From assembly GCA_965206675.1 (NCBI GenBank), contig CBDBKL010000008.1, positions 103,208 to 167,207 of the forward strand: a DNA stretch of 64,000 nucleotides, given 5' to 3'. Within the stretch, counting starts at the first letter, position 1. Each line of letters starts with the position of its first letter. Positions 13 through 52,519 of the stretch are shown here, one piece after another. The DNA comes from Bdellovibrionales bacterium. GTDB lineage: Bacteria; Bdellovibrionota; Bdellovibrionia; Bdellovibrionales; JAKFYE01. Below the pieces are notes generated by a model. That model made no database searches, was not told the origin of the DNA, and was given only the letters and a program-made list of their open reading frames with translations. Both the position numbers and the translations under genes were made by a program.

Positions 13-903
13 ATGCTTAGCGAAACTAACCAATTTACCTTCGAGGGGCTTCACCCTCCTCAATGCAAACCCTTTAAAAAGCAATTATTTAAATGGATTG
101 GCAATAAACAAAGGTTTGCTCATGAAATCATTAATCACTTTCCATTGAAATTTAATAGATATTTTGAACCCTTCTTAGGAAGTGGTGCCGTACTTGGCTC
201 CCTAGCCCCAAAAGAAGGTTACGCCTCTGATATTATAACACCCCTTATAGAAATATGGACCAACATTATAAAAAATCGAAATGAAGTTAAAAAATGGTAT
301 CGTGAACGTTATGAATTAATGAAAGAAATAGGAAAAGAAAAAGCATATTACTATATTCGAGAAAAATACAATAAGAAAGCAAACCCTCAAGATTTTCTTT
401 ATCTCTCTAGAACATGTTATGGAGGAGTCATTCGCTTTAGAAAAAAAGATGGATACATGAGTACACCCTGTGGTGTCCATAACCCCATTCAACCTCAAGC
501 TTTTGATGATAGAGTGGAGATTTGGGCAAGAAGAATCAAAAATTGCAAATTTTTTAACAAAGATTTTGAATTTTTATTTAATATGGCTCGAGAAGGTGAT
601 GTTATCTATTGCGACCCTCCCTATGTTACAAGTCAACAAATCGTTTATGGTGCTCAATCCTTTTTGTTAGAGCGTTTAATGACCTGTATTGAAAAAGCTA
701 AATCCAAAGGTGTATATATCCTCCTCTCTATTGATGGATCTAAAAAAAATGGAAAAGTCTTATGTGATATTCATTACCCTGATCACCTTTTTGAAAGAGA
801 AGTCTCTGTTAATTGTGGACGGAGTATGCTTCGAAGATTTCAAAAAGAAGGCGAAACTCTGGAAGATGAAGTTGTCTCAGACAGACTTCTCCTGACATAT
901 TAA
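13..903 (+). CDS. Dam-family (alpha-class) N6-adenine DNA methyltransferase
   Basis: 296-aa ORF. SAM motif I FEPFLGSGAV is followed roughly 140 aa later by catalytic motif IV DPPY (VIYCDPPYV), the I-then-IV order of Dam/D12 enzymes. A purine run GGGGGA lies 6 nt upstream of the ATG. Confidence 0.8.
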   Translation: MLSETNQFTFEGLHPPQCKPFKKQLFKWIGNKQRFAHEIINHFPLKFNRYFEPFLGSGAVLGSLAPKEGYASDIITPLIEIWTNIIKNRNEVKKWYRERYELMKEIGKEKAYYYIREKYNKKANPQDFLYLSRTCYGGVIRFRKKDGYMSTPCGVHNPIQPQAFDDRVEIWARRIKNCKFFNKDFEFLFNMAREGDVIYCDPPYVTSQQIVYGAQSFLLERLMTCIEKAKSKGVYILLSIDGSKKNGKVLCDIHYPDHLFEREVSVNCGRSMLRRFQKEGETLEDEVVSDRLLLTY

Positions 904-1736: not shown

Positions 1737-1988
1737 AAAATCCTCTACAATCTTTATAAAAGTAGTTTCCAAAATAAAGGATTGGTTTATTTTCTGTAAG
1801 ATTTGTAGCCAGTTTAATGTCAATAAACCAACTGACATCCAATCTATCACCCCCTTTTGAGGTTTCAATCAAAAATTATGACACACAACGACCCCTATAA
1901 ACTTCCAAAAGCACTCTGGCTAAGTGTATTGACAATAGAACTAACTAGACAGCATCCTGAGAATTGAAAGACAAAAAGGAGACCTCCT

Positions 1989-7557: not shown

Positions 7558-7783
7558 AAGACTTCCAGTTTACCAAAATTCAAATTAAGTGACTAAATGG
7601 GTTCTAGATTTTTGTCGGAGATTTATACAATAAAAAAGACCAAAGTCCACACCTAAATGTTTCACCTTGCAAAATGAAATCAAGCCGCAATTTATCTATT
7701 CCATAAGCAAAAACCCCTCAACTCAAACCTAGCGCATTAAAACTTGAAGATTTTTTATTTTTGATATATATTGGTATATACTT

Positions 7784-8251
7784 ATGTTTATCGAAAAGAT
7801 CATCTCCCAATTTACAAAACACAACATCCCCTATGCTATTGTTGGAGGTCATGCAATGGCTCTCCATGGAATTCTAAGAGGAACTGTTGATGTCGATCTT
7901 ATTATTAAATGGTCACTTAAAAATCTGAAATCCGTAGAACTAGCATTAAGTGAAATTGGTTTAAAACCTCACCTTCCTATTAAGGCAGAAGATTTATTTA
8001 AATACAGAGAAGAATATATTAAAAATAGAAACCTCATTGCATGGAATTTTATTAACCCCCATAATCCCTCCGAGATAGTTGATATTATCATTACTTGGAA
8101 TTTGAAAAACAATATGATTACGCAGATACATTTAAAAAATAAAAAAATTAATATTTTGTCCAAAAAACATTTAATATCTATGAAAAAATCCAGCCCACGA
8201 GAACAAGATTTTATAGATGCTAAAGCCTTGGAGCAAATTGATGAAAACTAA
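7784..8251 (+). CDS. minimal nucleotidyltransferase-fold protein (possible toxin-antitoxin component)
   Basis: 155 aa. It has the NTase signature IVGGHAMALHGILRGTVDVDLII (GG...DxD) and a C-terminal SPREQDFIDAKALE resembling the K.sgR.kD..D...L tail of small NTase families. Confidence 0.5.
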   Translation: MFIEKIISQFTKHNIPYAIVGGHAMALHGILRGTVDVDLIIKWSLKNLKSVELALSEIGLKPHLPIKAEDLFKYREEYIKNRNLIAWNFINPHNPSEIVDIIITWNLKNNMITQIHLKNKKINILSKKHLISMKKSSPREQDFIDAKALEQIDEN

Positions 8252-8507: not shown

Positions 8508-8657
8508 TACTGAACACCACTAACAGTATAATGTGTTATCCGGATTAAATGTCCGAATACCGACCACTTATTTCCTGAAAGTTCCTTATTTTGGTTTTCA
8601 GTAGGGCACTGACCTTGCTCTTATCCCCTCCTTTATCAACATAAGGAGATAGTGAAA

Positions 8658-9542
8658 ATGAAAAAACCACTGAACAAACCCTACATTAAACTGACTCAAG
8701 ATCTAATGTTTAAGGCCTACTTTATAAGAGACAAAAGTCTTCTTCGCTCTTTACTCAAAAGCTTTCTTCCACTTCCCTCAGATAAAGATATTGAAAAAAT
8801 TGATATCCTAAACCCCGAGATTCCTCCTGAAGCTAAAAAGAAAAAACAAATCATCTTAGATCTAAAACTGGAATTAAACACAGGTGAGAAAATCAACGTT
8901 GAAATGCAATCTGCCTACAAGAAAGGCTTTCTATCTAGAGTCCTGTTCTACTGGGCTAAACTCTACACCGACGGCTTTAAGCAAGGAGCAGAGTATGAAA
9001 CACTTCATCCCACCTACTCTTTGATCTTTACTGAATTTTCAGTGTTTAAAGAAACTAAAGACGTTGTCACTAGCTTTTCTTTACTCTCAGATAAAGAGCC
9101 ACATTTTTGTCTCAATAGGGATTTAAAGATAGTGTTTGTAGAACTTTCTAAGTTTAAAACAAGTCTAGAGGGTTTAATTGATTTAAGAGACCATTGGTGC
9201 TATATTATTAGGCATTCAAGTCAAATAAAAGAGAGTGAGTTAGAGCAGTTGGCTCAGAAAAACCAAGAGATGAGGAAAGCTATGGGACTTTTAAAGAATA
9301 TGTCGTTAGAAGATAAGTTGAGGTGGCAGGAAGAGGATCGTCTTAAAGCCATTAGTGATGAGAAAGCTGAAAAGGCTTGGGCCTATGATCAGGGATTAGA
9401 GAAAGGAATGGAGAAAGGTGAGCAAAAAAAACTTCAGCAAATCGTTTATAGAATGTTAAAAGAAAAAGCTGACCTTATTACAATTGAAAAATTCACGGGC
9501 CTATCTGAAGCTGAAATTAAAAAAATCCAAAAAAGAAAATAG
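8658..9542 (+). CDS. Rpn-family PD-(D/E)XK nuclease / putative transposase-like protein
   Basis: It has the N-terminal block DLMFKAYF...LLKSFLPLP and the nuclease core ILDLKLELNTGEKINVEMQ (D...ExQ). AAGGAGA lies 8 nt upstream of the ATG at 8658. A GTG at 8652 is an alternative start. Confidence 0.65.
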   Translation: MKKPLNKPYIKLTQDLMFKAYFIRDKSLLRSLLKSFLPLPSDKDIEKIDILNPEIPPEAKKKKQIILDLKLELNTGEKINVEMQSAYKKGFLSRVLFYWAKLYTDGFKQGAEYETLHPTYSLIFTEFSVFKETKDVVTSFSLLSDKEPHFCLNRDLKIVFVELSKFKTSLEGLIDLRDHWCYIIRHSSQIKESELEQLAQKNQEMRKAMGLLKNMSLEDKLRWQEEDRLKAISDEKAEKAWAYDQGLEKGMEKGEQKKLQQIVYRMLKEKADLITIEKFTGLSEAEIKKIQKRK

Positions 9543-15668: not shown

Positions 15669-16415
15669 ATGACACTCACCAAAAGTATTTTCTATATGAC
15701 CTTGTACGCAACCTTCTTTTCCTTTTTCCAAATAGCCTACGCTCATATATCAAACACTGAAACCCTAGAGGAAAACTACGTTAGAAGTATCGAGGCTCCC
15801 GCTGAAAAAGCCATGGTAGAAACATGGGAAAATCTTACCCTAGAATTAAAGAGAAAAGAGAAGTTCCTCTTTAAAGCCGCAGAAGAGAACGACGTCCTAA
15901 GCATAGAAACCCTTTTAAATGAAGGTGTTGATGTAGAAGCAAGAGACAGTAAAGGCAGGACAGCTTTACATATAGCTGCACAATCGAACAGCTCGGGGGC
16001 TATAGAAGCTCTTGAGAAAGCCGGGGCTGATTTAGAGGCCAGATATTTTGGAATGACACCTCTATTTTATTCTTCAGAAAGAGGCCATAAAGAAGCAACA
16101 AAGACTCTATTAAGATTGGGAGCCGATGTACATGCAAAATCTAGAAATCTTTCACCCGGAAGGACAGTTATGCATGGTGCTGCTCTGGATAGTAACTCTG
16201 AAATAATAAGAATTCTTTTAGAGGCAGGTGCTAATCTAGAAGCTCGAAATGATGACGGGGACACACCTTTAATCTATGTTGCAAGAAATGGGATGGGTCA
16301 GTATGAAATGATAAGAATCCTCATTAACTTCGGGGCTAACATAGAGGCAAGAAACAATGTTGGAAAGACAGCTCAAGATTATATTCTCACAAGCCTTAAA
16401 CTTGATGAAGAATAA
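15669..16415 (+). CDS. secreted ankyrin-repeat protein
   Basis: 248 aa with a hydrophobic leader ending AYA and at least 5 ANK units (GRTALHIAA...GADLEAR etc.). Confidence 0.85.
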   Translation: MTLTKSIFYMTLYATFFSFFQIAYAHISNTETLEENYVRSIEAPAEKAMVETWENLTLELKRKEKFLFKAAEENDVLSIETLLNEGVDVEARDSKGRTALHIAAQSNSSGAIEALEKAGADLEARYFGMTPLFYSSERGHKEATKTLLRLGADVHAKSRNLSPGRTVMHGAALDSNSEIIRILLEAGANLEARNDDGDTPLIYVARNGMGQYEMIRILINFGANIEARNNVGKTAQDYILTSLKLDEE

Positions 16416-19815: not shown

Positions 19816-20006
19816 TTTTCCCCTCTTCTACTTATTGACCGTTCTTATCATAGCCAAGCCATAAAAATTACAGGAAGACTTCTTTTTTAGAAAAAGATTC
19901 TATGTAAGTATTCCACCAGATTTTATTTCTATTCTCCGCTTATTAAAACTCTGCTTTATTGCACTAGAGTTTTTTAAGAAGCATGATCTATAAATACGGT
20001 ACTTTT

Positions 20007-22016
20007 ATGAAATCACTTGTAAATTCTCTTTGGACCATCATTATTTTATCCTTTTCATTACAAGCGATAAGCTCTGAGTGGTCTGAAGAACTCGAATGGG
20101 CCATCCGCACAGCTTACTTAGATAAAGTGAATAGACTCCTTGCCAATGAAAACCTGGATGTGAATGCCAGAAAAAAACCATTCAACCCCGATCACAAGCT
20201 GGGAAACACGTATTTAGGTATAGCCGTAGAACACATAAATGATGAAAGAATCGTAGGAGCACTTCTAAAAGCCGGTGCTGATGTCAATGCTGAACTAGAA
20301 TATAGCCCTTCTGTTTTATTTCACGCTTTAGACTATGTCAGAAATGAAAAAGTCATAGAGGTACTTCTGAAATTTGGGGCCGATACAAAGATGCTAAGAA
20401 ACAAAGGGGCAACGGGATATGGTGGGACAGTATTGCATGAGGCTGCAGAGTGGGGGCAAAATGAAAGAGTTGTCCAAATACTTCTAGATGACCCCAGCCT
20501 TACAACCGAGATCGTTAATGCAACAGATGCAGAGGGAAAAACAGCTTTGCAACGTGCAATGTATCAAAGCCAAATACAACATGATAAAGAAAGACACCAA
20601 AGGATTGTTGATACATTTTTAAACCACCCAAAGGTAAAGGTTGATGGTTTTGAATTATTTAAACTTGCTATAGATGCCAATGATCTTAACCGCATAAAAG
20701 AACTTATTGCAAATGAGAGAATCGATATAGACGCCAGAGGACCTTATAATAATACACCCCTGCAATATGCTGCAGAAAATGCAGAAGATGTAAGAGTCAT
20801 AAATGCCTTTCTAGAAGGTGGGGCTAATGTCAATGCCATATCTGATCATGGAAACACAACCATACATTATGCTTTAAAGAATACGAAAACGGCAGGGATT
20901 GTGACAGCACTACTTAGAGATCCCAATATGGATACGGAGGGAATAAAAGGGTTGGCAAATGATCTGCTAAGAAGCCTTATATTTATTATACATAATACTC
21001 TAGTGCCCCGATCCATAGATTTTAAAAATAACATAGAAGCTGTAAAAGAACTTTTTAGGGATAGAAAACTAAATCCCAATGAAACAGATGCAGAGGGAAG
21101 AACACTGTTACATCTTATAGCTAGAGGTTCTTCAAAAGGTTCCTTAGAGATCATGCAGGCACTGATTGAAGTCGGGGCTGATATACACGCAACAGACAAT
21201 CAGGGACGAACACCTCTTCATACGGCAGCAAATATAAAAAATGAAAAAGGAATAATAGTCCTTCTTGAAGCAGGCGCAGATGTGACAGTAACAGATAACG
21301 ACAAACGAACACCTTTGCACCTACTCGTTCGCTCAAGAGAGATGCCCTCTTGGAATATACTATCAGACAGCATAAGTCCAATAGCTGTACAAGCCATTCT
21401 GGAAAATCCCAATTTTAGCACTATAGTCGCCAATGTAAGAGACAAGTATGACATGACACCCTTAGAAACGGCTGTTCGAAATCCTCAGTTGAAAAACTGG
21501 AAAGCTATAAAAAAGCTTCTTGATGATCCTCATATTCGCCCTAATATGACAAATAAACATGGAGAAACAGCACTGCATTTGCTTGTGGAAAGTGCAAGGT
21601 CAGGCGTCCTTATAACACTGTTTATTAATCATGAAAGGGTTTTAAAAAATCCAACAGACAACGACGGCAATACCCCATTTCACTCGGCTGCAGCTTTTTC
21701 AAATAATCCGAAAATTATTCAGGCCTTTCTTGATATCCCAGAAGTTAATATACATGCTTTGAACGATAAGGGACTAACTCCTTTTCAAGAAGCTGAAAAC
21801 GCCATTGGTCAACGTCGATACATTCTTCAAGTCTTTCATAATCATCCTCGATTTAATAGATTTAAGGGTTCAGATACTGATACAGATCGTAAAGGTGATA
21901 AGAAAGCTAAGGAATCAAAACCTTGGCATTTGGAAGGCAACGTTATACGAGGGGCTTTTCCAAATGAAGAAATGGATACTCAAACCAATGAGGAAGAATT
22001 AAAACCTTGTTTTTAA
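20007..22016 (+). CDS. large secreted ankyrin-repeat protein
   Basis: The Met at 20007 opens a signal peptide (MKSLVNSLWTIIILSFSLQAISS); the ORF track starts at 19983. There are more than 12 ANK units. The protein ends ...EEELKPCF. Confidence 0.85.
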   Translation: MKSLVNSLWTIIILSFSLQAISSEWSEELEWAIRTAYLDKVNRLLANENLDVNARKKPFNPDHKLGNTYLGIAVEHINDERIVGALLKAGADVNAELEYSPSVLFHALDYVRNEKVIEVLLKFGADTKMLRNKGATGYGGTVLHEAAEWGQNERVVQILLDDPSLTTEIVNATDAEGKTALQRAMYQSQIQHDKERHQRIVDTFLNHPKVKVDGFELFKLAIDANDLNRIKELIANERIDIDARGPYNNTPLQYAAENAEDVRVINAFLEGGANVNAISDHGNTTIHYALKNTKTAGIVTALLRDPNMDTEGIKGLANDLLRSLIFIIHNTLVPRSIDFKNNIEAVKELFRDRKLNPNETDAEGRTLLHLIARGSSKGSLEIMQALIEVGADIHATDNQGRTPLHTAANIKNEKGIIVLLEAGADVTVTDNDKRTPLHLLVRSREMPSWNILSDSISPIAVQAILENPNFSTIVANVRDKYDMTPLETAVRNPQLKNWKAIKKLLDDPHIRPNMTNKHGETALHLLVESARSGVLITLFINHERVLKNPTDNDGNTPFHSAAAFSNNPKIIQAFLDIPEVNIHALNDKGLTPFQEAENAIGQRRYILQVFHNHPRFNRFKGSDTDTDRKGDKKAKESKPWHLEGNVIRGAFPNEEMDTQTNEEELKPCF

Positions 22017-31185: not shown

Positions 31186-32325
31186 CTAAAAATTTCCCAC
31201 CTTTTCTTCCCATCCGAGCTCTTCTTTTAATTTCTCCCACCGATTTTTTGCATCCTTTAAAGACTCCAGAAATTCTCCACCTCTTCTTTCAGCATAAAAC
31301 AGTGGCGTTCGTCCCTCTTCATCTTCAGCATAAATATCTGCGTCGAACCTAATGAGAGCTTTGACAACTTCAAAAGTGCCAACTCTTGCCGCTTCATGAA
31401 GCGGAGTCCTCCCCCTATTGTCTCTTGCATTAGCATCTGGATCGTAATTAATAATCATTCCTGCATTATCTAGAGTTCCATGCATTGCAGCCCAATGAAG
31501 TGGCGTCCTTCCCCTCTTATCCACGGCATGAACGTCTGCTCCTACTCTAACAAGATGATAAATAACATGCGAAGAATTCCAAAACCGTGTTGCCGCTCTA
31601 AAAAGTGGGGTAAGCCCTTCCTTAGTTCTTGCATGAACATCTGCTCCTGCATCTAAAAGAACTTGTATTTCATCTGGAGTTCGAGCCTCCGCCGCAAAAT
31701 GTAGAAGAGTGCTTCCCGAATTATCTTCTAAATTTATATCAGCACCATTTTGAAGAAATAAATGCACTAAAGTTAAAAACTCCTGAGTTGTACTCCCATA
31801 TTCTTCCCTGCTGAGTCTATCTGCACCTACAAACAAAGGCACTCGCCCTTGCCAATCTCTCGCATTGACATCTGCACCCAGAGAAATAAGAGTTTCTACA
31901 TTCTTTATCTTTATATTTTTAGCTGATATAGCCGTGTGTAATGGTACCCTGAGTAAATCATTTCTTATATTAACATCTGTACCTGAAGTTATAAAAGCTT
32001 CTATGTGCTCTGGTGTTCCATATATTGCAGCAATATGCAGTGGCGTTTGTCTCCAGTAACGATCAGCTACAGTGACATCTGCACCTAAAGAAATAAGAGT
32101 TTTTATCTGCTCCGGAGTCCCATATCTTGCAGCATAATGTAAGGCTGTTTGCCCTGAGTACATATCTCTGGAATTAACATCTGCACCCAATGCCACCGCA
32201 ACAATAAGAGCACCCACTTCCTTTGCATTATCAGCTTTAAAGGCTCTATCATCTGTCGCATACACATCAAATGAAAAACAAAATAGTAAAGCGACAGTAA
32301 ATAATTGTATTATTATTGATTTCAT
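31186..32325 (-). CDS. secreted ankyrin-repeat protein
   Basis: 379 aa with a signal peptide (MKSIIIQLFTVALLFCFSFDVYA) and about 9 ANK units (TPLH.AA..G....I..LI..GADVN). Confidence 0.85.
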   Translation of the reverse strand: MKSIIIQLFTVALLFCFSFDVYATDDRAFKADNAKEVGALIVAVALGADVNSRDMYSGQTALHYAARYGTPEQIKTLISLGADVTVADRYWRQTPLHIAAIYGTPEHIEAFITSGTDVNIRNDLLRVPLHTAISAKNIKIKNVETLISLGADVNARDWQGRVPLFVGADRLSREEYGSTTQEFLTLVHLFLQNGADINLEDNSGSTLLHFAAEARTPDEIQVLLDAGADVHARTKEGLTPLFRAATRFWNSSHVIYHLVRVGADVHAVDKRGRTPLHWAAMHGTLDNAGMIINYDPDANARDNRGRTPLHEAARVGTFEVVKALIRFDADIYAEDEEGRTPLFYAERRGGEFLESLKDAKNRWEKLKEELGWEEKVGNF

Positions 32326-33839: not shown

Positions 33840-33965
33840 AACTCTTAGCTCTCAACTGAGTTCTTTTTTACATCAGAATAAAACCAAATACTAGCTGGAA
33901 AATAAATTCTCATAAAAAATAACAATGTCATTTTGAATAAAGGAAGGGATATTACCCTAAAGCGA

Positions 33966-33989
33966 ACACTGCTCTCTATAGGGCAGTGT
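33966..33989 (-). terminator. hairpin downstream of the lipoprotein gene 34016..35689
   Basis: ACACTGC/GCAGTGT forms a 7-bp stem with a 10-nt loop, 27 nt past the stop. The T-tract is weak. Confidence 0.35.
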
Positions 33990-34015
33990 ATTTACATGAA
34001 GATATTTCGTATATG

Positions 34016-35689
34016 TTATTGTTGTTTCCTAGATTCCTGTTCTTTCAAAATATCCTCAACAGACCGAGGAAGTGGACTCGTGTCTCTCAAAAACTGTTGC
34101 CATCTCTGAGAATGCTCTCTGTACTTGGCATCAGTAAATCCAGAGGCTTCCATCGATTTTGTTTGAATAGATTTCAGAACATCATCTCTCGATTGAGATG
34201 GATCATCAACTTTCATCCAATAGATATGGTGCCAAGCGCGATACCATACAGATTCACCTGTCTCTTTATCCACAAAGAGACCTTTTCTAACCAAATTGAT
34301 TTCTCCATTTTGATCTTCTTTTTCTGCTTCATTCAAATGCAGACCAAAGCCATTCCATGCATACTCTCTAAACTCACAAGGCTCTCCAGAATAGGATTCT
34401 CCATCTGCACACTTATTACCGTCAAAGTTTTTAATTGTCATATGCCTTCCTAAATCACAAGCTATGACCTTACCTTCATATTTATCTATATGAACCTCGT
34501 CACTACCAGAAGATTGAGTCACCTTTGTACCAATAGCCGTTCGGATATCTCCCGATGGATTAGAGAAAGAAAAGCGAGAAATAGATGACCTACGTAATCT
34601 TTCAAACATTTTCATTTTCATTTCTCTAGATGTTTGATCCATAACAGACTGCCCATCATCATCTAAAATATCGAAACCATAAAGCCTGGAATAAGAAGCA
34701 ATAGATTGATCATTTGTAAGAACATAGTCATGTATGTCCTTTAAAGAGAAACACTCTGATACATCAGCTGTCCCTTCTTCAACTTTAATAGGAACATCTG
34801 ATGGCTCTGTTGCTTCATCTACTTTAACAACCGAGTCAGGAGTTAGAGTTTTCGGAAGCGTTCCAGTCTCAGAAACATCTGTTGTTTCATCTACCTTAGA
34901 AACCGTCTCTCCCACTTCTTGGGAAGGTTTTTTTGCTGCCGTTCCCACAGGGTCACTTTTTATTTTAGACTGCTGAACTGGACTTTGCTTTGTAACAACT
35001 TTTGTAGCTTGCTGTTCCGGTTTCTCCAATAAAGGGGTCCAACCCACACCTTTTTCAAAACACTCTACATTATAGTTACGAGCATGCTCTCGAGCATCCT
35101 CTTCATCTCGGAAATACTTATCCATTTTATCAGTAACAGGGTTCCGTGATGGCATTATCTTACGGCATTTGTTCATATCTAGTACAACCCCATCTGATTC
35201 AGATCTTTTCCTATTCGCTTGTTTCTCTTCTCTATCTCTACGCCTTTCTGCTCTCTTAGATGTACCTTCTTTTTTATCTCTAGCCTTTTTGGCTCTCTTA
35301 GATGCCTTACTTGCCTTTCCATTGGAACTTCGAGAGTTACAGGCCATGCCATGCCACCATACCGCAAAAGGTCCCCAGCCCCTCACACACAGCCGTGGGT
35401 GAGCCACTCTGGTATGATGAAATTGTCCTATATATTGCTGACAGAATCTTTGAAGCTGCATCTGCCGTTCATGCTGATGACATTGAATAGAACCAGGAGA
35501 CATCAACCATTGACAATAGGCATACGACCCATGCCCCATACCTCTGGGAGGAAAACATCCATGGCGACCATATCCCCCAAATCCTCCAGTGGCATAAGGA
35601 GTATTGTAAAAACCATTTCTCCTGAATTGATTATTTTTCCCACAACTCGTAAAGACTATGGCTATTAGTAAGATAAAAGGATATTTCAA
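34016..35689 (-). CDS. lipoprotein, unknown family (basic-linker paralogue)
   Basis: 557 aa with a TTG start and lipobox FTSC. It has a Gly/His/Cys/Trp-rich N-terminal region and a Lys/Arg-rich linker. It shares four conserved blocks with the neighbouring gene 35747..37249. Confidence 0.7.
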   Translation of the reverse strand: MKYPFILLIAIVFTSCGKNNQFRRNGFYNTPYATGGFGGYGRHGCFPPRGMGHGSYAYCQWLMSPGSIQCHQHERQMQLQRFCQQYIGQFHHTRVAHPRLCVRGWGPFAVWWHGMACNSRSSNGKASKASKRAKKARDKKEGTSKRAERRRDREEKQANRKRSESDGVVLDMNKCRKIMPSRNPVTDKMDKYFRDEEDAREHARNYNVECFEKGVGWTPLLEKPEQQATKVVTKQSPVQQSKIKSDPVGTAAKKPSQEVGETVSKVDETTDVSETGTLPKTLTPDSVVKVDEATEPSDVPIKVEEGTADVSECFSLKDIHDYVLTNDQSIASYSRLYGFDILDDDGQSVMDQTSREMKMKMFERLRRSSISRFSFSNPSGDIRTAIGTKVTQSSGSDEVHIDKYEGKVIACDLGRHMTIKNFDGNKCADGESYSGEPCEFREYAWNGFGLHLNEAEKEDQNGEINLVRKGLFVDKETGESVWYRAWHHIYWMKVDDPSQSRDDVLKSIQTKSMEASGFTDAKYREHSQRWQQFLRDTSPLPRSVEDILKEQESRKQQ

Positions 35690-35746
35690 ATACTTAATAA
35701 AATTTCTCCCTTTTACTGGTGATATCTACCTACGTACGTTAACGGT

Positions 35747-37249
35747 TTAAATCCCCTTTTGCTCTCTGTATTCTTCAGCCGCTTTCTGCTGAGCCTTGCG
35801 CTCTTCTCGAATTTCCTCAGGAGCCCTCATTTCATTTGGATTTGTAGCCCTCAAGAAATCTTGCCATTTCTTAGAATGCTCTTGGTAATTCCCATCACCG
35901 TCCTCAGCAGCACTTTGGGCTTTTGATAGAAGGGCCGCCGCATCATTGGATGGATCATTTTTTGTCCAATAAACATAATGCCAAGCCTTATACCATGCAG
36001 ATTCTTTCGCCTCTTCATTTGAAACAAAACGGCCTTTTCTAACCAGCATGATTCTTCCATCTTCACCCTCTTCTTCATGCAAATTTAAACCATGACCATT
36101 CCAGTGATACTCTCTAACCTCACAAGCATTCTTTATCTTATTACCCTCATAAACCTCACACTGATCACCGCTGAAATCTCCATAAAAGTTCTTTACTATC
36201 ATCTTTCTTTTGGATTCACAGGAGACAATCCGTCCTACAAATTCATCAAGTTGAACCAAAGTATCACTCTCAGGCTGAACGACTAGTGCTCCAACATCAG
36301 AAGACTGATCCACATCTGTTCCAATAGGCGTCTCTGCACTTCTTAACCAACGACTTATGGCTGTACTTGATGCCATCCCAGCATCCAATTTCTTCATCAT
36401 TTCTTTAGTTGCTTGATCCAGAATAGGTTTTCGTTCCTCATCCAAAAGAAGAGATTTCCCTTGCTCATTTAAGATAAGAGATTGCCCTTGATCACTCAAA
36501 ACATCAAAGCCATACAACTTGGAGTGACCAGCTATAGATTGACGATTTTCAAGTACATAATCATGTATATGTTTTAAAGAAAAACATTCTGATACATCAA
36601 TATCCTTAACCTGAATGGTAACTTTTGTATCTTCTGCAGCTTCTTGCTCCGGCTGAGAAGATTCAGTAGAATCCGCACCTTTCTCACGTTTTGGACAATC
36701 CCACTTCAATTCTTTACCTTTAGGAGTTGGCCTTAAATGCTTCCAAGTACCTTTTTCTCCATCAACACCTTTGTGGAAACATTCCACATTATACTCATGA
36801 GCATGCTCTAAAGCCTCTTCAGCATTTCTAAAGTATTTAGTCATTTTATAAGTAGCGACAGGATCGTTTGTTGGACATATTTTACGGCAATTCTGCATAT
36901 TTAATTCAATGTTACCTGATTTAGGCATTTCTTCTGCAGCGTCCTTATTTGCAGCATCCTTACCTTCTTCACCTGTAGATGCTTCCTTTTCAACAGACTC
37001 ATCTGTCTTCTCTAAATTCTCATCATCATCTCCAGCTTTCTCAGAATTTTCCTCGCCAGTGACTTTCTCTTCATTGAGTACATCAGAATTACAGGCTTCA
37101 CCGTACAGAGTCACAATATGAGGTCCAAACTTTACATCACAAGAATCAACATATGGTCTAACAACAGTAGACCTTCTCTCTTGATGACTTCCAGTACAGC
37201 CCATAAAGACTGCAACCATTAAAAAAGCAAAATATAAATTTAGGTTCAT
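35747..37249 (-). CDS. lipoprotein, unknown family (acidic-linker paralogue)
   Basis: 500 aa with lipobox FMGC and a Glu/Asp-rich linker. Blocks shared with 34016..35689 include MQNCRKICPTNDPV...KYFRNAEEALEHAHEYNVECFHKG, DVSECFSLKHIHDYVL, CEVREYHWNGHGLNL and WYKAWHYVYW. Confidence 0.7.
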   Translation of the reverse strand: MNLNLYFAFLMVAVFMGCTGSHQERRSTVVRPYVDSCDVKFGPHIVTLYGEACNSDVLNEEKVTGEENSEKAGDDDENLEKTDESVEKEASTGEEGKDAANKDAAEEMPKSGNIELNMQNCRKICPTNDPVATYKMTKYFRNAEEALEHAHEYNVECFHKGVDGEKGTWKHLRPTPKGKELKWDCPKREKGADSTESSQPEQEAAEDTKVTIQVKDIDVSECFSLKHIHDYVLENRQSIAGHSKLYGFDVLSDQGQSLILNEQGKSLLLDEERKPILDQATKEMMKKLDAGMASSTAISRWLRSAETPIGTDVDQSSDVGALVVQPESDTLVQLDEFVGRIVSCESKRKMIVKNFYGDFSGDQCEVYEGNKIKNACEVREYHWNGHGLNLHEEEGEDGRIMLVRKGRFVSNEEAKESAWYKAWHYVYWTKNDPSNDAAALLSKAQSAAEDGDGNYQEHSKKWQDFLRATNPNEMRAPEEIREERKAQQKAAEEYREQKGI

Positions 37250-37479
37250 GGCTCTCTTCTCCCTTTATGTAGAATAATATACACCCTCATAACGGTTTAA
37301 TGTTCAATATTCTTTAAATATTCTTCTACAAAAATAGAACTCCAATATGTTTATAGCCATCTAGACTAAGATCTAGGAGACTCATCAATTATAATAAAAA
37401 AGTAGCCATCTATTTTAGATGATCATCTCAAATTAAAAGCACTACAGAGCGATCTGTTTCATAATGAAACATTCATAGA

Positions 37480-37666
37480 CTTAGAGCCTATCCCAAAACC
37501 AACTTCTATTACAAACGGCTACAATTGCGCTCGGCTTTGTCTTCAAGCAAAAAATGGCCTTCAACGTGCTTCAAGCCACGCCTTCAGGCATTTTTTACTT
37601 TCATCCTTGCGGAGCACAATCTCGCTCGTTTTCATCACGAAGTTGGTTTTGGGATAGGCTCTTAAG
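37480..37666. repeat. family A palindromic element, long copy (about 187 nt)
   Basis: 24-nt terminal inverted repeats AGAGCCTATCCCAAAACCAACTTC / GAAGTTGGTTTTGGGATAGGCTCT. The whole unit is an imperfect hairpin centred on CGTG-CTTCAAGC-CACG. A second copy lies at 60866..61014. Confidence 0.8.
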
Positions 37667-44827: not shown

Positions 44828-45011
44828 GAACTTCATTCTCTCATAAACCCAAAGACAGCAACTAAGAGTATAAATTAATTTCAATATGAAAGGGTAACCT
44901 TTTCACTGCTTTTGGACTCATTCGAGTTTTATAGATCAATAGATTATAATGAGCCGGAAATAAAACCACTTAGGGAGTTTATAGTTCAGCACTAAAACTG
45001 TATTGAAATCT

Positions 45012-47954
45012 ATGAATTTGTCATTTTTCTTTTCTATAAAATTATTATTTTTCACGACTCTATTGGGATTCTCTTCTCCCCTTCTCTACGCTCAAACTGA
45101 GAACAGTTTTGAACAATTAATCCCTACACTTTCTCAGGGAGAGCAGTTTCCCTACATGACAGAGCAGGTCTTAATGTCGCCTCCACAGCTCATCCAAGCT
45201 AATAATACAAAACTTGTTGAAGCATTAGAAAACAATGACCTCTATCGACAACTTATCGAAAACCACTCTCCCCTATTGACTCTAGAAATAAGCTCCGACA
45301 TAAAAACCGGAGGATTTGTTCAATTTAAAGTTGTTAAAGAGAGCTTTATTTCTAATTGGGGTCAGGAACTTTCAGCTTTTGCTTCAGAGAATAAATTCAA
45401 TAGCTCTCATCAAGTTTTACAAGAAATCTCTAGGTTGTTATCAGAGAGGCCTTATCTGGCCGCTACCCCTCATGATTTTGTCTCCGCCTTCAGTCAAACC
45501 TTAGATAGGAGTGTGGATCGAGAAGAAATTTTTCGAGCTCTTGAGCATGATGATATTTCAATATTGGAGAGGGTTCTTGATCCTTACCCAGAAGCAAGAG
45601 GGTTTAAACCGATGGCTTTTGCCTTAGAGTCAGATAGAGAAAAGGAATACTATTTAGATGCTTTAAGAGAAATGATGGAAGCTAACGAGAGGATGAACCA
45701 ACTTTTTGTGACTTATATGCTAGCTTGGCAAAAGGAAGCAGAAAATGTAAAAGGAAGTTTAGAAAAATATTTAATAGAACTCACTGAAGAAAAATTAGTT
45801 TGGTTAAGAGAATCTGGTTTACAAAAAGGTTATATAAAGCGCATTACAAATGCTGCTCAAGAAATAAAGGCCATTCGCAGAAGAATATTCGTTCGCATTA
45901 AAAGTATAGAAAGAGAGATTGGGCGTCACCAAGACGTTGTAACAGAGCATGTTCAAACAAGTAAAAATAGTCTAACATTAGTAGAGGTTCATCCTTCCAT
46001 TGGTATTTTTCGAGGCTACATAGGTGGAGATTGTTCGAGCAGTACATGCTTTGGTTACCCCTACAGTTCTGAAGAAAGGGTTTTCTTTATACTTAACAAG
46101 CGAGGAGAGGATGTCGGTTACTTAAATGGGGCTATGGTCAATACCCTTGATGGAAAAAGAGCCTTTCTCGTCAATGGCCTTGCCGGCGCAAGGATATCTA
46201 AAGAGATGACAACAATTATATTTGCTGCTCTAAGCAAAAGTCGCAGGGAATTAGGTGTAGAAAAAGTGCTTCTTCTAGGCCGACAAAGCCATTTACCAAA
46301 TCTTGACTACACGGAAATTAGACGAGCCTTTGATAGTCATGCTGGAGCTGACGTTCCTATTATTTTTTTAGATCAAGATTTTCGAAAGATTATTGATATA
46401 TATTCTACAATTACTAGATATGATAGTCCCAACAGACTGTCGATGGGTCATCAAATCGAAAACATCGAAGAAATCCGAGAAAGCACACGTGTGATAACTT
46501 CGGAACGACCATTTGCCCCGCCTCAATTATCAGACTTTAACCCCTCAGACCTCCAACCAAGGCAAAAGTTTTTGATTAATTTATACCACCCTCATATTGC
46601 TGAAGAGTTTGGAATAGATGCCTTAAAAAATCCTGAATATGCTGAAAAGGCAGGAGTGAATTTAGTCGAAGGTAGAAACTTATTGGACATCGTTCAAAAT
46701 AACGACAGACTTCAAAATTTTCAATATATGCTAAGGTTGGAATCTATACTGAATGATTTCTCCTTTTCTCTGGAAGAAACGGCTCCATTCATAATGTTTC
46801 AGTATATAAGGGGCCTTGTCAGTGCTCCAGATTTTTTTAAAACTCCTATTTATGAGAAAGTCATAGAAACTCTTGAGCAAGCCATTGCAAAAGCAAAAAG
46901 CCCTGAAGATTTAAGAGGATATATCACCGAAGTTTTCCCTTATGTTCGCGGCAAAAGAATGGGGGAAATCGTTGAAAGAGTTTTAGATTTTGTCATTGAA
47001 AGTAAAAATGCTGACTTACTTGAACAGTTTGCTCATGAGGTTTTCCCTCGTGCTCGTATCCCTAATAAAGCCGAGATGATTAAAAAAACTCTCAGAGCTG
47101 CAAGAGCACTAACAGAAAAAAATAGAATATTAGTTTCTTTAGCTGCTAGAACCTTACCTCGAATACGGTTAGTTCAAAGAAAAAGTCTCATTGAACACGT
47201 TAGATCTACCGCCATTGCATTAAAAGATAGGGATAGTTTGTTTTGGTTAGGTTTTTATAACAACTTTGGTAATGAGAAGGGGTGGCAATTAATGAGACAA
47301 ATTACTCAAATTATTCAAAAAATGCCACCACATCCATATCTATTTTCGTTTCCATTTTTTAACCCCAATCGCCTCACAACTCAGGACTATGAACAGCAGC
47401 TTGAGATGCTTAAAGATTATTTTTCCCTTACCCCCAAACAATTCTTTGATCTATTTTTTGTCGATGAAATAGTAGGCCGAATATTAGCAAGCGATGCCGA
47501 TCTAGAGTCAAATAAGAAAACAGTTCTCAAACTTATTAAAGAATTTACTGAGAGTAATATGGTCCCCATATTTTTAGAACGATTAGATCAAATGATACTC
47601 TCTAATCCCCTGACAGATGGTATACAGAAAGTGTGGACAAATGACATGTGGAAAATTTGGGTAGATGGTATGTGGAAAATGGTAAAGAGAACTATAGAAG
47701 TGGCAATTGAACTTCAAGATCACAAAACTATTGAGACACTTGAGAAAGAATTCTTTTCCAAGGTTACACTCGAAATTGAAGAGTACAAACATGAGTTTTC
47801 GATTACCAGGGATGCCATCCGTACATTCGGCCATGATAAGAATTGGGAAACATTAGAAAACAAACTTCAAACTACTAATAATAACCGTTCGAAAAGGTCA
47901 GACAATCAACCTGTTGTACGTAAATCCTCTGACCTACCTTGTTTTGCCCCATGA
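45012..47954 (+). CDS. large secreted protein, unknown function
   Basis: About 980 aa with a signal peptide (MNLSFFFSIKLLFFTTLLGFSSPLLYA). A TTG at 45003 is an alternative start. The C-terminal half is helical-repeat-like. The protein ends ...SSDLPCFAP. Confidence 0.6.
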   Translation: MNLSFFFSIKLLFFTTLLGFSSPLLYAQTENSFEQLIPTLSQGEQFPYMTEQVLMSPPQLIQANNTKLVEALENNDLYRQLIENHSPLLTLEISSDIKTGGFVQFKVVKESFISNWGQELSAFASENKFNSSHQVLQEISRLLSERPYLAATPHDFVSAFSQTLDRSVDREEIFRALEHDDISILERVLDPYPEARGFKPMAFALESDREKEYYLDALREMMEANERMNQLFVTYMLAWQKEAENVKGSLEKYLIELTEEKLVWLRESGLQKGYIKRITNAAQEIKAIRRRIFVRIKSIEREIGRHQDVVTEHVQTSKNSLTLVEVHPSIGIFRGYIGGDCSSSTCFGYPYSSEERVFFILNKRGEDVGYLNGAMVNTLDGKRAFLVNGLAGARISKEMTTIIFAALSKSRRELGVEKVLLLGRQSHLPNLDYTEIRRAFDSHAGADVPIIFLDQDFRKIIDIYSTITRYDSPNRLSMGHQIENIEEIRESTRVITSERPFAPPQLSDFNPSDLQPRQKFLINLYHPHIAEEFGIDALKNPEYAEKAGVNLVEGRNLLDIVQNNDRLQNFQYMLRLESILNDFSFSLEETAPFIMFQYIRGLVSAPDFFKTPIYEKVIETLEQAIAKAKSPEDLRGYITEVFPYVRGKRMGEIVERVLDFVIESKNADLLEQFAHEVFPRARIPNKAEMIKKTLRAARALTEKNRILVSLAARTLPRIRLVQRKSLIEHVRSTAIALKDRDSLFWLGFYNNFGNEKGWQLMRQITQIIQKMPPHPYLFSFPFFNPNRLTTQDYEQQLEMLKDYFSLTPKQFFDLFFVDEIVGRILASDADLESNKKTVLKLIKEFTESNMVPIFLERLDQMILSNPLTDGIQKVWTNDMWKIWVDGMWKMVKRTIEVAIELQDHKTIETLEKEFFSKVTLEIEEYKHEFSITRDAIRTFGHDKNWETLENKLQTTNNNRSKRSDNQPVVRKSSDLPCFAP

Positions 47955-51111: not shown

Positions 51112-51385
51112 ATCACTATATTATACTCGCAATTATAATTCAATCAAGTGAATTATAGTTGTATTTTAAAGAGACAGGGTTCGCCGCTTTCCCCCTTTGG
51201 GCTTTTAAACTTCGCTCTCGATGACTTCAGGCGTTGTCCAGTCAACCGCTTTGGTTTTGAAAAAAATTCTCGCTTGAACCTTTCCAGAACGAGCATTCTG
51301 AGTCATCACGATTTTATTTATAATGACGTTTATCTTTACCTTTGTTACTAACACTCTGATGCAAATCTTAAAGGAGTCTTACATT

Positions 51386-52519
51386 ATGTTCGCAAAATTA
51401 ATTCTAACAGCCCTTATAGCCATTTTTGTCTTCTCTGAATCGCTTTATGCTACAGATGGTAAAGCGGATACAGATATAGCACTTCAAGTAGAAAAACACC
51501 TTGATAAAAAATCTATAGAAGCCCTACCAACTCTCACTGAGAGGAAAAAGAAAAAACAGTGGTTTGACGCTGCTAAAACGGGAAATCTACTGCGTCTAGA
51601 GCAACTGCATAAATTCGTTAATATGAATGGAAGGCATTATAGAACCGGACGGGCAGTGTCTCATATGGCTGTAATACATAGACAATATAAGGCTCTAAAA
51701 AAATTTAAAGAGCTGGGGGGAGATTATCTCATTAGACAAGCCAGAGATAACCAAGGAAGAGCACCAATCCACTATGCTGCATCATTTGGAGACTCTACCG
51801 CTATAAGAACTCTGTTTAATGAGGGAGCTGACTTGGAAGTCAGGAGCAAAGATGGACTGACACCTCTATTGGAGGTTCTAATTTTCGGAGGTTGGAATGT
51901 TTCCCAAGCACAAGAAGCCTTTAATACGCTTGTTGAACTAGGAGCCAATTTAAATGCAGAAGATAACAATGGTGTGAGGGCCTCAGAGTTAGCACTGGAC
52001 AAGGGATGGATAAAAGAAATACCAGATAACAGCGTAGATAAAAATGCTGAGGCACAAACTGAAAGTCTACAAGAACACATCCGTGGTACCGCAAAGAAAA
52101 AAATGTGGTTTGAAGCTGCTAAAGCCGGCTTTGCACCCCTTCTAGAAGAATTACATGAAACGATGATGATTGATATAAATGCACAAGATTCCCGGGGAAA
52201 CACAGCGGCCCATTTAGCTGTGATATTTCGTCAATATGATGTTCTAAGAACACTTAAAGATTTAGGTGGGGACTATCTTCTTGGGTATGCAAGAATGTCT
52301 GGTGGATTAGCACCATTACATGCCGCTGCCATAAATGGTGACCTTATAGCTATACGAACTCTATTTGATCTAGGGGCTTACTTAGAAGTCAAGGACAGTC
52401 GAGGGATGACGCCTCTATCTTGGACTCTAGCTGCTGGAAGACAAGAAGCCTTTAATACCCTTGTTGAGCTAGGAGCAAATACAGATGTAGAATATCTAAA
52501 TTCGGAAGAGGCAGCTTAG
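51386..52519 (+). CDS. secreted ankyrin-repeat protein with internal duplication
   Basis: The Met at 51386 has AAGGAG upstream and opens a signal peptide (MFAKLILTALIAIFVFSESLYA). Two homologous halves are present. A conserved tail continues out of frame to 52578. Confidence 0.8.
   Translation: MFAKLILTALIAIFVFSESLYATDGKADTDIALQVEKHLDKKSIEALPTLTERKKKKQWFDAAKTGNLLRLEQLHKFVNMNGRHYRTGRAVSHMAVIHRQYKALKKFKELGGDYLIRQARDNQGRAPIHYAASFGDSTAIRTLFNEGADLEVRSKDGLTPLLEVLIFGGWNVSQAQEAFNTLVELGANLNAEDNNGVRASELALDKGWIKEIPDNSVDKNAEAQTESLQEHIRGTAKKKMWFEAAKAGFAPLLEELHETMMIDINAQDSRGNTAAHLAVIFRQYDVLRTLKDLGGDYLLGYARMSGGLAPLHAAAINGDLIAIRTLFDLGAYLEVKDSRGMTPLSWTLAAGRQEAFNTLVELGANTDVEYLNSEEAA

Follow-up and report, generated by a model that had tools for sequence, protein, structure and literature searches.

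Tandem lipoprotein genes with oppositely charged linkers in a Bdellovibrionales bacterium: a probable duplication of a promoter-plus-gene unit followed by asymmetric divergence

Introduction

Two kinds of described system come close to the locus treated here, a pair of adjacent genes, A and B, that encode predicted lipoproteins in a 64,000-nucleotide stretch of a Bdellovibrionales genome (contig CBDBKL010000008.1; hereafter the window). Oppositely charged disordered proteins can form a high-affinity complex, as prothymosin-alpha and histone H1 do. In Escherichia coli, the -35 element of sigma-28 promoters is TAAAG. In Bdellovibrio bacteriovorus, where 140 attack-phase promoters have been mapped, 66% of them, promoters of surface proteins included, contain the FliA/sigma-28 site TTAAG-N16-CCGATA (Karunker et al. 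2013; PMC3627812). The A-B locus recalls both systems, with linkers of opposite charge inside the two proteins and a sigma-28-like motif upstream of A.

A sequence-only reading of the window had proposed that A and B are lipoprotein paralogues, that their linkers pair them electrostatically in a heterodimer, and that an 11-mer upstream of each gene is a shared element. Our analysis leads to another account of the arrangement. A and B would stem from a tandem duplication of a promoter-plus-gene unit, followed by asymmetric divergence, and would now probably form an A-B operon transcribed from a sigma-28-type promoter. We give this reading, which is drawn from sequence comparison, a probability of about 55%. 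Both genes lie on the minus strand, and all locus coordinates are positions in the window (Table 1).

Results

A and B are paralogues. Their products are 36% identical across ~500 aligned positions (BLASTP, E 4e-82), and both precursors carry a lipobox, VFMGC in A and VFTSC in B, at the open reading frames (ORFs) where the sequence-only reading had seen them, which bears out its description of tandem paralogues encoding lipoprotein-type precursors. The four shared blocks with conserved cysteines that it listed are all present in a five-sequence family alignment. In A numbering, the invariant cysteines of that alignment are C18 (the lipid cysteine), C37, C53, C121, C157, C222, C344 and C376, so that seven conserved cysteines are common to A and B beside the lipid cysteine. 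By inspection, both N termini show a hydrophobic h-region followed by [LIVMFWSTAG](2)-[LIVMFYSTAGCQ]-[AGS]-C with the cysteine at position 15-35 (a PROSITE PS51257-type pattern): ...AFLMVAVFMG-C18 in A and ...LLIAIVFTS-C16 in B (C19 if B starts at an upstream ATT, see below). The n-region of B has K2, or K2 and K5 with the ATT start. The lipid cysteine and the phenylalanine three residues before it are invariant in all 11 family members. We therefore refer to A and B as predicted lipoproteins with a putative location in the cell envelope.

Three loci were used for comparison: two Logan contigs (L001 and L003) and one locus (L002, gene P0005) of a divergent Bdellovibrionales metagenome-assembled genome (MAG; OZ220494.1). 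Alignment of the four intergenic regions upstream of the first family gene shows a conserved block, TAAAGAATATTGAnnATTAA[A/G]CCGTTAT, in the window, L001, L003 and the MAG. Both elements, TAAAG and CCGTTA, occur unchanged and in the same position at the four loci, although the surrounding intergenic sequence has diverged from that of the MAG: its distal part is barely alignable, and the best-conserved part is the promoter-proximal one, around the block and then at the Shine-Dalgarno sequence. The motif TAAAG-N16-CCGTTA resembles a sigma-28/FliA-type promoter, on which A would depend; it agrees with the Bdellovibrio consensus at 4/5 positions of the -35 and 5/6 of the -10, with the exact N16 spacing. 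It has a single intergenic, gene-proximal instance in the window. There is no sigma-70 consensus on the coding strand upstream of A. An extracytoplasmic function (ECF)-type promoter (AAC...CGT) was also considered and rejected by eye, since its spacing misfits in all four loci.

On the coding strand the 11-mer reads TTAAACCGTTA, and the window has exactly two copies of it, one at 35740..35750, 50 nt ahead of the annotated start of B, and one at 37290..37300, 40 nt ahead of that of A. By our estimate, the chance that two regions of 60-100 nt and such composition share an exact 11-mer is ~0.001-0.004. The copy upstream of A consists of the last five spacer nucleotides of the promoter and its -10 hexamer. 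The similarity of the two upstream regions is not confined to the 11-mer. They give a 37-nt ungapped local alignment (p ~0.009 against shuffles) in which GAAGAATA stands 18 nt upstream of the 11-mer in both copies, and both copies are followed by ~25 nt, AAGGGAGAA (the Shine-Dalgarno sequence) and a start codon, with shared start-proximal codons. Because this similarity extends beyond the 11-mer, the duplicated unit would have included the promoter.

The copy upstream of B has not kept the features of a promoter. TAAAG at its -35 is degraded to GAGAG, and its 11-mer overlaps the stop codon of A (GGG ATT TAA ACC GTT A). The last eleven codons of A (AAEEYREQKGI), which are missing in B, are encoded by this promoter relic. 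In the relatives the 11-mer before B is mutated, to TTAAACTGTTA in L003 (one mismatch) and to TTAAATTATTA in L001 (three), in the A-B spacer, which is 57 nt long in the window and otherwise ~95% identical. The identical pair of 11-mers stands, at the positions first given for it, but it does not represent one regulatory element serving both genes, as the copy before B has no -35 and is mutated in both relatives. By this comparison, the 11-mer before B is a decaying paralogous relic and the one before A a predicted functional spacer/-10 element.

The start codon of B appears to have decayed as well. An in-frame ATT at 35698 (35698..35696) matches the ATG of the MAG gene, codon for codon, in ATT AAG TAT TTG AAA TAT versus ATG AAG TGT TTG AGA TAT. 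In tblastn, the alignment of P0005 begins at 35698, with the ATT on Met1. The same ATT is found in L003 and L001. It lies 7 nt after GGGAG, while the TTG at 35689 (35689..35687), three codons downstream, lies 16 nt after it, a poor Shine-Dalgarno spacing. The alignment of the MAG ATG with the ATT therefore points to a start of B that is now weak, whether ATT or TTG. Since B has no promoter of its own, it probably depends on read-through from A, and the weak start and read-through together argue against stoichiometric co-production of A and B.

Comparison with remote homologues shows which copy has changed more. The remote homologues, B and P0005 share a lipobox, a Gly/Tyr/Pro-rich stretch, a multi-Cys/Trp module (YC.WL..DGE..C....R..F...CQ....NYC), variable low-complexity linkers, a short 2-Cys segment and a C-terminal domain with two invariant cysteines. 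The Gly/His/Cys/Trp-rich N-terminal segment attributed earlier to B does exist, as residues 17-117, and corresponds by homology to the module at the N terminus of the remote members. In B the module reads YCQWL..C..R..L..FCQQY..C..GWGP..C; it is mostly deleted in A, where its first four cysteines are missing. Independent confirmation comes from tblastn against the MAG gene, with E ~1e-7 for the N-terminal part (residues 1-110 of P0006 and P0010) and E 1e-8 to 1e-10 for the C-terminal part of the remote homologues. Because the remote homologues share the N-terminal module of B and A lacks four of its cysteines, the B-type architecture is, from these alignments, taken to be ancestral, and A a derived, truncated copy.

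The first linkers differ in charge, as had been proposed, and lie close to where the sequence-only reading had placed them. Linker 1 has a net charge of -15 in A of the window and of -10 and -9 in its two orthologues; in B it is +12, with +10 and +10 in the two orthologues and +9 in the single MAG homologue. The opposite signs are thus kept across three related loci. Charged residues make up ~45-55% of both linkers. The sequence of the linkers turns over almost neutrally, yet the sign and size of the linker-1 charge persist. In the remote homologues the equivalent segment has a net charge of -5 to +7; a basic linker therefore marks the close group of B and the MAG gene and does not characterize the family at large.

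The tandem itself is seen at three close loci. L001 and L003 have the same A-B tandem in the same synteny as the window, with a divergent YitT gene and a 142-aa gene upstream; downstream of the pair L003 has the abhydrolase and DCC1 genes, and the L001 contig ends inside gene B. The MAG is syntenic over ~20 kb, with amino acid identities of 89% for YitT, 90% for SdhA, 79% for the abhydrolase and 69% for FolC. It carries a single B-type gene, P0005, immediately following the YitT intergenic region, and lacks an A-type gene. Each of the three remote homologues with a readable contig likewise stands as a single copy. Basic and acidic members therefore do not always occur in tandem, contrary to what the heterodimer proposal would lead one to expect of a genome survey: homologues stand singly in the MAG and at three remote loci, which largely amounts to the outcome that the sequence-only reading had named as refuting it. 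From these single-copy loci, which have no acidic partner, it follows that B-type proteins function alone. When a neighbor-joining (NJ) tree was built from the C-terminal domain, B and the MAG gene formed a group without A in 500/500 bootstraps. Two histories would fit: a duplication older than the MAG split, with later loss of A from the MAG, or a faster evolution of A once the genes had been duplicated.

The junction downstream of B is a variable spot. Between B and the proline-iminopeptidase-like abhydrolase gene there are 176 nt in the window (33840..34015) and 5 nt in L003 (4786..4790), and in the MAG an oppositely oriented gene for a high-potential iron-sulfur protein (HiPIP) sits at the junction after the B-type gene.

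Ratios of nonsynonymous to synonymous substitution (dN/dS, omega) were computed against the L003 orthologues. Over the whole gene, dN/dS is 0.445 for A and 0.273 for B, compared to 0.06-0.07 for four neighboring genes with similar dS. By region, omega is 0.10-0.24 in the folded blocks and 0.42-0.99 in the linkers; in A, the folded blocks have an omega of 0.20-0.24, and linker 2 and the middle region one of ~1. The folded blocks are under purifying selection. From this pattern, both genes are functional but fast-evolving, A faster than B.

The C-terminal 258 residues of B were modeled confidently with AlphaFold2 from an 11-sequence alignment, with a predicted local distance difference test score (pLDDT) of 82 and a predicted template modeling score (pTM) of 0.79. 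The modeled domain is alpha/beta, with ~eight strands and three C-terminal helices, and its invariant cysteines are C14 and C112 in domain-alignment numbering. Full-length A, modeled from five sequences, reached a pLDDT of 34, and that model was unusable. In a Foldseek search of the PDB with the model of the B domain, the top matches were nearly all Bet v 1, PYL or START (SRPBCC) structures. None reached the TM-score of > ~0.5 expected for an SRPBCC/Bet v 1-like fold, and no structural neighbor was convincing. A helix-grip, ligand-binding fold for the C-terminal domain is a lead only.

The family is unnamed and very small. Word-indexed searches of 5.8 billion clusters gave only three close relatives beyond the two window proteins: P0002, 63% identical to A, and P0004 and P0005, 82% and 49% identical to B. 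When 1.84 billion representatives were searched exhaustively with a HMMER profile, seven remote matches (E 1.7e-8 to 4.4e-4) came in addition, for a family total of three close and seven remote cluster representatives. The remote set used here comprises six retrieved members (P0006-P0010 and P0012), with P0011 (1428 aa) left out; all six are metagenomic lipoproteins that are nameless or labeled 'hypothetical protein'. A word-indexed search with an 11-sequence profile returned the five known close members and nothing further, and two scans of Joint Genome Institute (JGI) metagenomes, one with the close-family and one with the remote-family alignment, gave no match. Among 185,579 species genomes (one genome each) there was one locus, that of the MAG, which is labeled 'Bdellovibrionales bacterium' and has a 1.82 Mb chromosome. 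Neither the species-genome scan nor the profile search of the representatives found a homologue in B. bacteriovorus. Searches of Pfam, NCBIfam and PDB sequences with A and B, as single sequences and as profiles, gave nothing above threshold, so the initial failure to recognize the family holds. A TerB_C match in B (E 0.011), over the basic linker, was dismissed as a low-complexity artifact.

Sigma-28-like motifs were also seen near two remote members, on the opposite strand and just upstream of the family gene: TTAAG-N16-CCGATA at 7732..7758 (-) of L005 and TAAAG-N16-CCGATA at 1771..1797 (-) of L006. Both lie within a block conserved between the two loci (TTGTTGTCTnATTATTGTATCGG). The L005 motif points at a divergent 309-aa gene, and in L006 there is no ORF of at least 100 aa downstream. 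Nearer the family gene, L005 and L006 share an inverted repeat, CTATGTAA...TTACA(n)ATAG.

Between the promoter of A and the divergent YitT gene lies a 180-nt palindromic insertion with perfect 24-nt terminal inverted repeats (AGAGCCTATCCCAAAACCAACTTC). The whole insertion folds as a single hairpin (RNA minimum free energy -96.7 kcal/mol, z = -11.5). It is absent at the orthologous sites in L001, L003 and L002, and has TAAG on both flanks versus a single TAAG at the empty site. It is present in a single copy in the window and has no Rfam match. By these features it looks like a mobile element of the miniature inverted-repeat transposable element (MITE) type.

The window encodes four ankyrin-repeat proteins (15669..16415(+), 19983..22016(+), 31186..32325(-) and 51323..52519(+)), one of them two genes from the lipoprotein pair, and subunits of an aerobic respiratory chain. 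Together with the 1.82 Mb length of the syntenic MAG chromosome and a GC content of ~37%, the ankyrin proteins suggest that the organism may be eukaryote-associated and not a classical Bdellovibrio predator. A literature search on ankyrin-bearing Bdellovibrionota symbionts returned general sponge and coral MAG surveys only. Elsewhere in the window are a 983-aa ORF at 45003..47954 (+) with no Pfam match at E <= 1e-5, a PD-(D/E)XK-family transposase-like gene at 8652..9542 (+) and a Dam-type methyltransferase gene at 13..903.

Table 1. Features of the A-B locus, given as positions in the 64,000-nt window
Feature	Position	Strand	Description
Gene B	34016..35698	-	557 aa (TTG 35689) or 560 aa (ATT 35698); basic paralogue; mature pI 8.5; lipobox VFTSC
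C-terminal alpha/beta domain of B	34019..34792	-	residues 300-557; helical tail; two family-wide invariant Cys; omega 0.11-0.23
Basic linker 1 of B	35183..35338	-	residues 118-169; net +12; omega 0.71
N-terminal Gly/Tyr-rich stretch and 6-Cys/Trp module of B	35339..35641	-	residues 17-117; alignment with remote homologues; omega 0.18
Putative relic of duplicated promoter	35740..35776	-	GAAGAATA...TTAAACCGTTA; inside the 3' end of A and the A-B spacer; TAA stop of A inside the 11-mer
Gene A	35747..37249	-	500 aa; ATG start; acidic paralogue; mature pI 5.0; lipobox VFMGC
Homologous C-terminal domain of A	35750..36619	-	residues 211-500; alignments and regional omega
Acidic linker 1 of A	36905..37090	-	residues 54-115; net -15; omega 0.42; AlphaFold2 pLDDT 21-30, without secondary structure
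Sigma-28 (FliA)-like promoter of A	37290..37316	-	TAAAG-N16-CCGTTA; conserved in four loci
Palindromic insertion	37483..37662		180 nt; between the promoter of A and the divergent YitT gene; perfect 24-nt terminal inverted repeats

Discussion

The history we propose begins with a B-type gene. Its product would have been a lineage-specific, disulfide-containing, modular cell-envelope lipoprotein of a small-genome, low-GC Bdellovibrionales-like bacterium, built in the order lipid anchor, Gly/Tyr-rich stretch, 6-Cys/Trp module, highly charged and probably disordered linker, 2-Cys mini-domain, second disordered linker and an alpha/beta domain of ~250 aa with a helical tail. After duplication, A, as the upstream copy, would have retained the working promoter, TAAAG-N16-CCGTTA, and lost most of the N-terminal module. 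Its linker would have turned negative where those of B and the MAG homologue are positive, if the direction of change is read correctly. The reading frame of A would have grown into the promoter copy before B, which would itself have decayed, and the ATG of B would have become ATT.

At present, B is most probably transcribed by read-through from the promoter of A, in a predicted A-B operon, and translated from a weak start. Both proteins are most likely tethered to the envelope or the surface, where flexible charged spacers would hold the folded C-terminal domain off the membrane. The ancestral function would rest with B, and A, which evolves faster, would be a sub- or neo-functionalized derivative.

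Several observations weigh against this reading or against parts of it. The NJ topology could reflect acceleration of A and not an old duplication. The n-region of A in the window (MNLNLYF) has no K or R, while the orthologues of A begin with MKYLNF, and the L001 orthologue of B (~8036..8060) has an asparagine at lipobox position -1 (FVNC), off the [AGS]-C rule, which may be real variation or an assembly error. The C-terminal domain has no trustworthy Foldseek neighbor (best E 7.5e-4, TM-score 0.12-0.25, root-mean-square deviation 13-19 A). As to the promoter, the -10 is CCGTTA and not CCGATA, and the -35 is TAAAG and not TTAAG; the A-to-T change in CCGTTA falls at a -10 position that we take to be important. 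No flagellar or fliA gene occurs in the window with which to calibrate the sigma-28 motif of the host. Finally, a possible association of the organism with eukaryotes tempers any 'attack-phase' reading of the promoter.

A could instead be a redundant copy under relaxed constraint that is drifting toward loss, with the charge inversion and the N-terminal deletion as by-products of decay. The substitution data leave some room for this, as the dN/dS of A is the highest in the neighborhood and omega is near 1 in linker 2 and the middle region; the lost N-terminal module, an n-region in the window without K or R and the absence of the A type from the MAG are in line with it. We nevertheless regard decay of A as unlikely, because its ORF is intact in three genomes, its folded blocks still have an omega of 0.20-0.24, its acidic sign is kept in all three orthologues, and A holds the only intact promoter as well as a canonical ATG with a good Shine-Dalgarno sequence.

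The sequence-only reading saw in A and B a heterodimer paired via the opposite linkers. As an explanation of the arrangement, the heterodimer would be obligate, with the tandem serving co-production of the subunits. Oppositely charged disordered proteins can bind tightly, and the linker charges of A and B roughly balance (-15/+12 in the window, -9 or -10 versus +10 in L003 and L001). Their signs persist despite almost neutral linker evolution, and the genes are adjacent and probably co-transcribed. However, the MAG has a basic linker (+9) without an acidic partner, the remote homologues are single-copy with linker charges from -5 to +7, and the degraded start of B makes stoichiometric co-production unlikely. 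The heterodimer also explains no observation that otherwise needs it, and complementary charges are its sole support. As the reason for the arrangement it is not upheld by the MAG and remote loci, and we hold it to be quite unlikely.

A narrower idea, to which we give a still smaller share of belief, is that in the tandem lineage A is a dedicated partner or antagonist of B, its poly-anionic linker binding or masking the poly-cationic linker of B, which would otherwise bind an anionic polymer of the envelope or the host. If this were true, the pair would form a charge-zipped two-lipoprotein surface module of eukaryote-associated Bdellovibrionales, switched on by a motility or transmission sigma factor.

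That the 11-mer is a transcription-factor operator, with A and B regulated separately from promoters of their own, is very improbable: there are exactly two copies in 64 kb, each 40-50 nt before a start codon, but the sequence is not palindromic, the A copy falls exactly at the expected -10 of the TAAAG-N16 promoter, and the B copy lies within the coding sequence and stop codon of A and is not conserved (one mismatch in L003, three in L001).

Duplication of a promoter-plus-gene unit therefore remains our preferred explanation. On that reading the locus is a small, clean example of how tandem duplication can reshape regulation, with a promoter copy absorbed into the coding end of the upstream gene and the start of the downstream gene degraded. 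One of the two copies would also have lost a module, and its linker would have come to differ in charge. No known open question hinges on the A-B locus. It does document an unnamed and very rare lipoprotein family, with ~ten representatives among 1.84 billion and a defined modular architecture.

Comparison with known systems

One of the nearest described domains, by sequence, is the Pfam family DUF1579 (PF07617). The remote member P0012 aligns with the C-terminal half of DUF1579, over the beta-rich part of the family's C-terminal domain, with E 7.6e-4, but its score of 19.8 bits is below the gathering threshold of 25.2, and it is the only one of 11 members to match; neither window protein does. 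A literature search found no papers on DUF1579.

By predicted structure, the C-terminal domain is comparable to the Bet v 1, START and PYR-PYL (SRPBCC) proteins. Its predicted order of a strand, a helix, antiparallel strands and long C-terminal helices is compatible with theirs. It differs in that there is no sequence-profile match and the TM-scores are 0.12-0.25.

The linkers of A and B resemble prothymosin-alpha and histone H1 in that ~45-55% of their residues are charged, with opposite net charge. That pair consists of two separate, soluble proteins whose interaction has been demonstrated, whereas here the charged segments are internal linkers of predicted membrane-anchored paralogues. In A and B, moreover, the basic linker would predate the acidic one.

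The FliA-controlled attack-phase proteins of B. bacteriovorus differ from the A-B locus in some respects. There is one mismatch per promoter element here, and the host, which has a small-genome relative and many ankyrin proteins, may not be a classical predator. The likeness is that both belong to the same order-level lineage and have the same promoter geometry, pentamer-N16-CCGxTA, and that here too the motif precedes a predicted non-flagellar secreted or envelope protein. If the sigma-28 link is true, A and B would belong to the surface of the motile or transmissive stage of a poorly known, probably host-associated Bdellovibrionales lineage.

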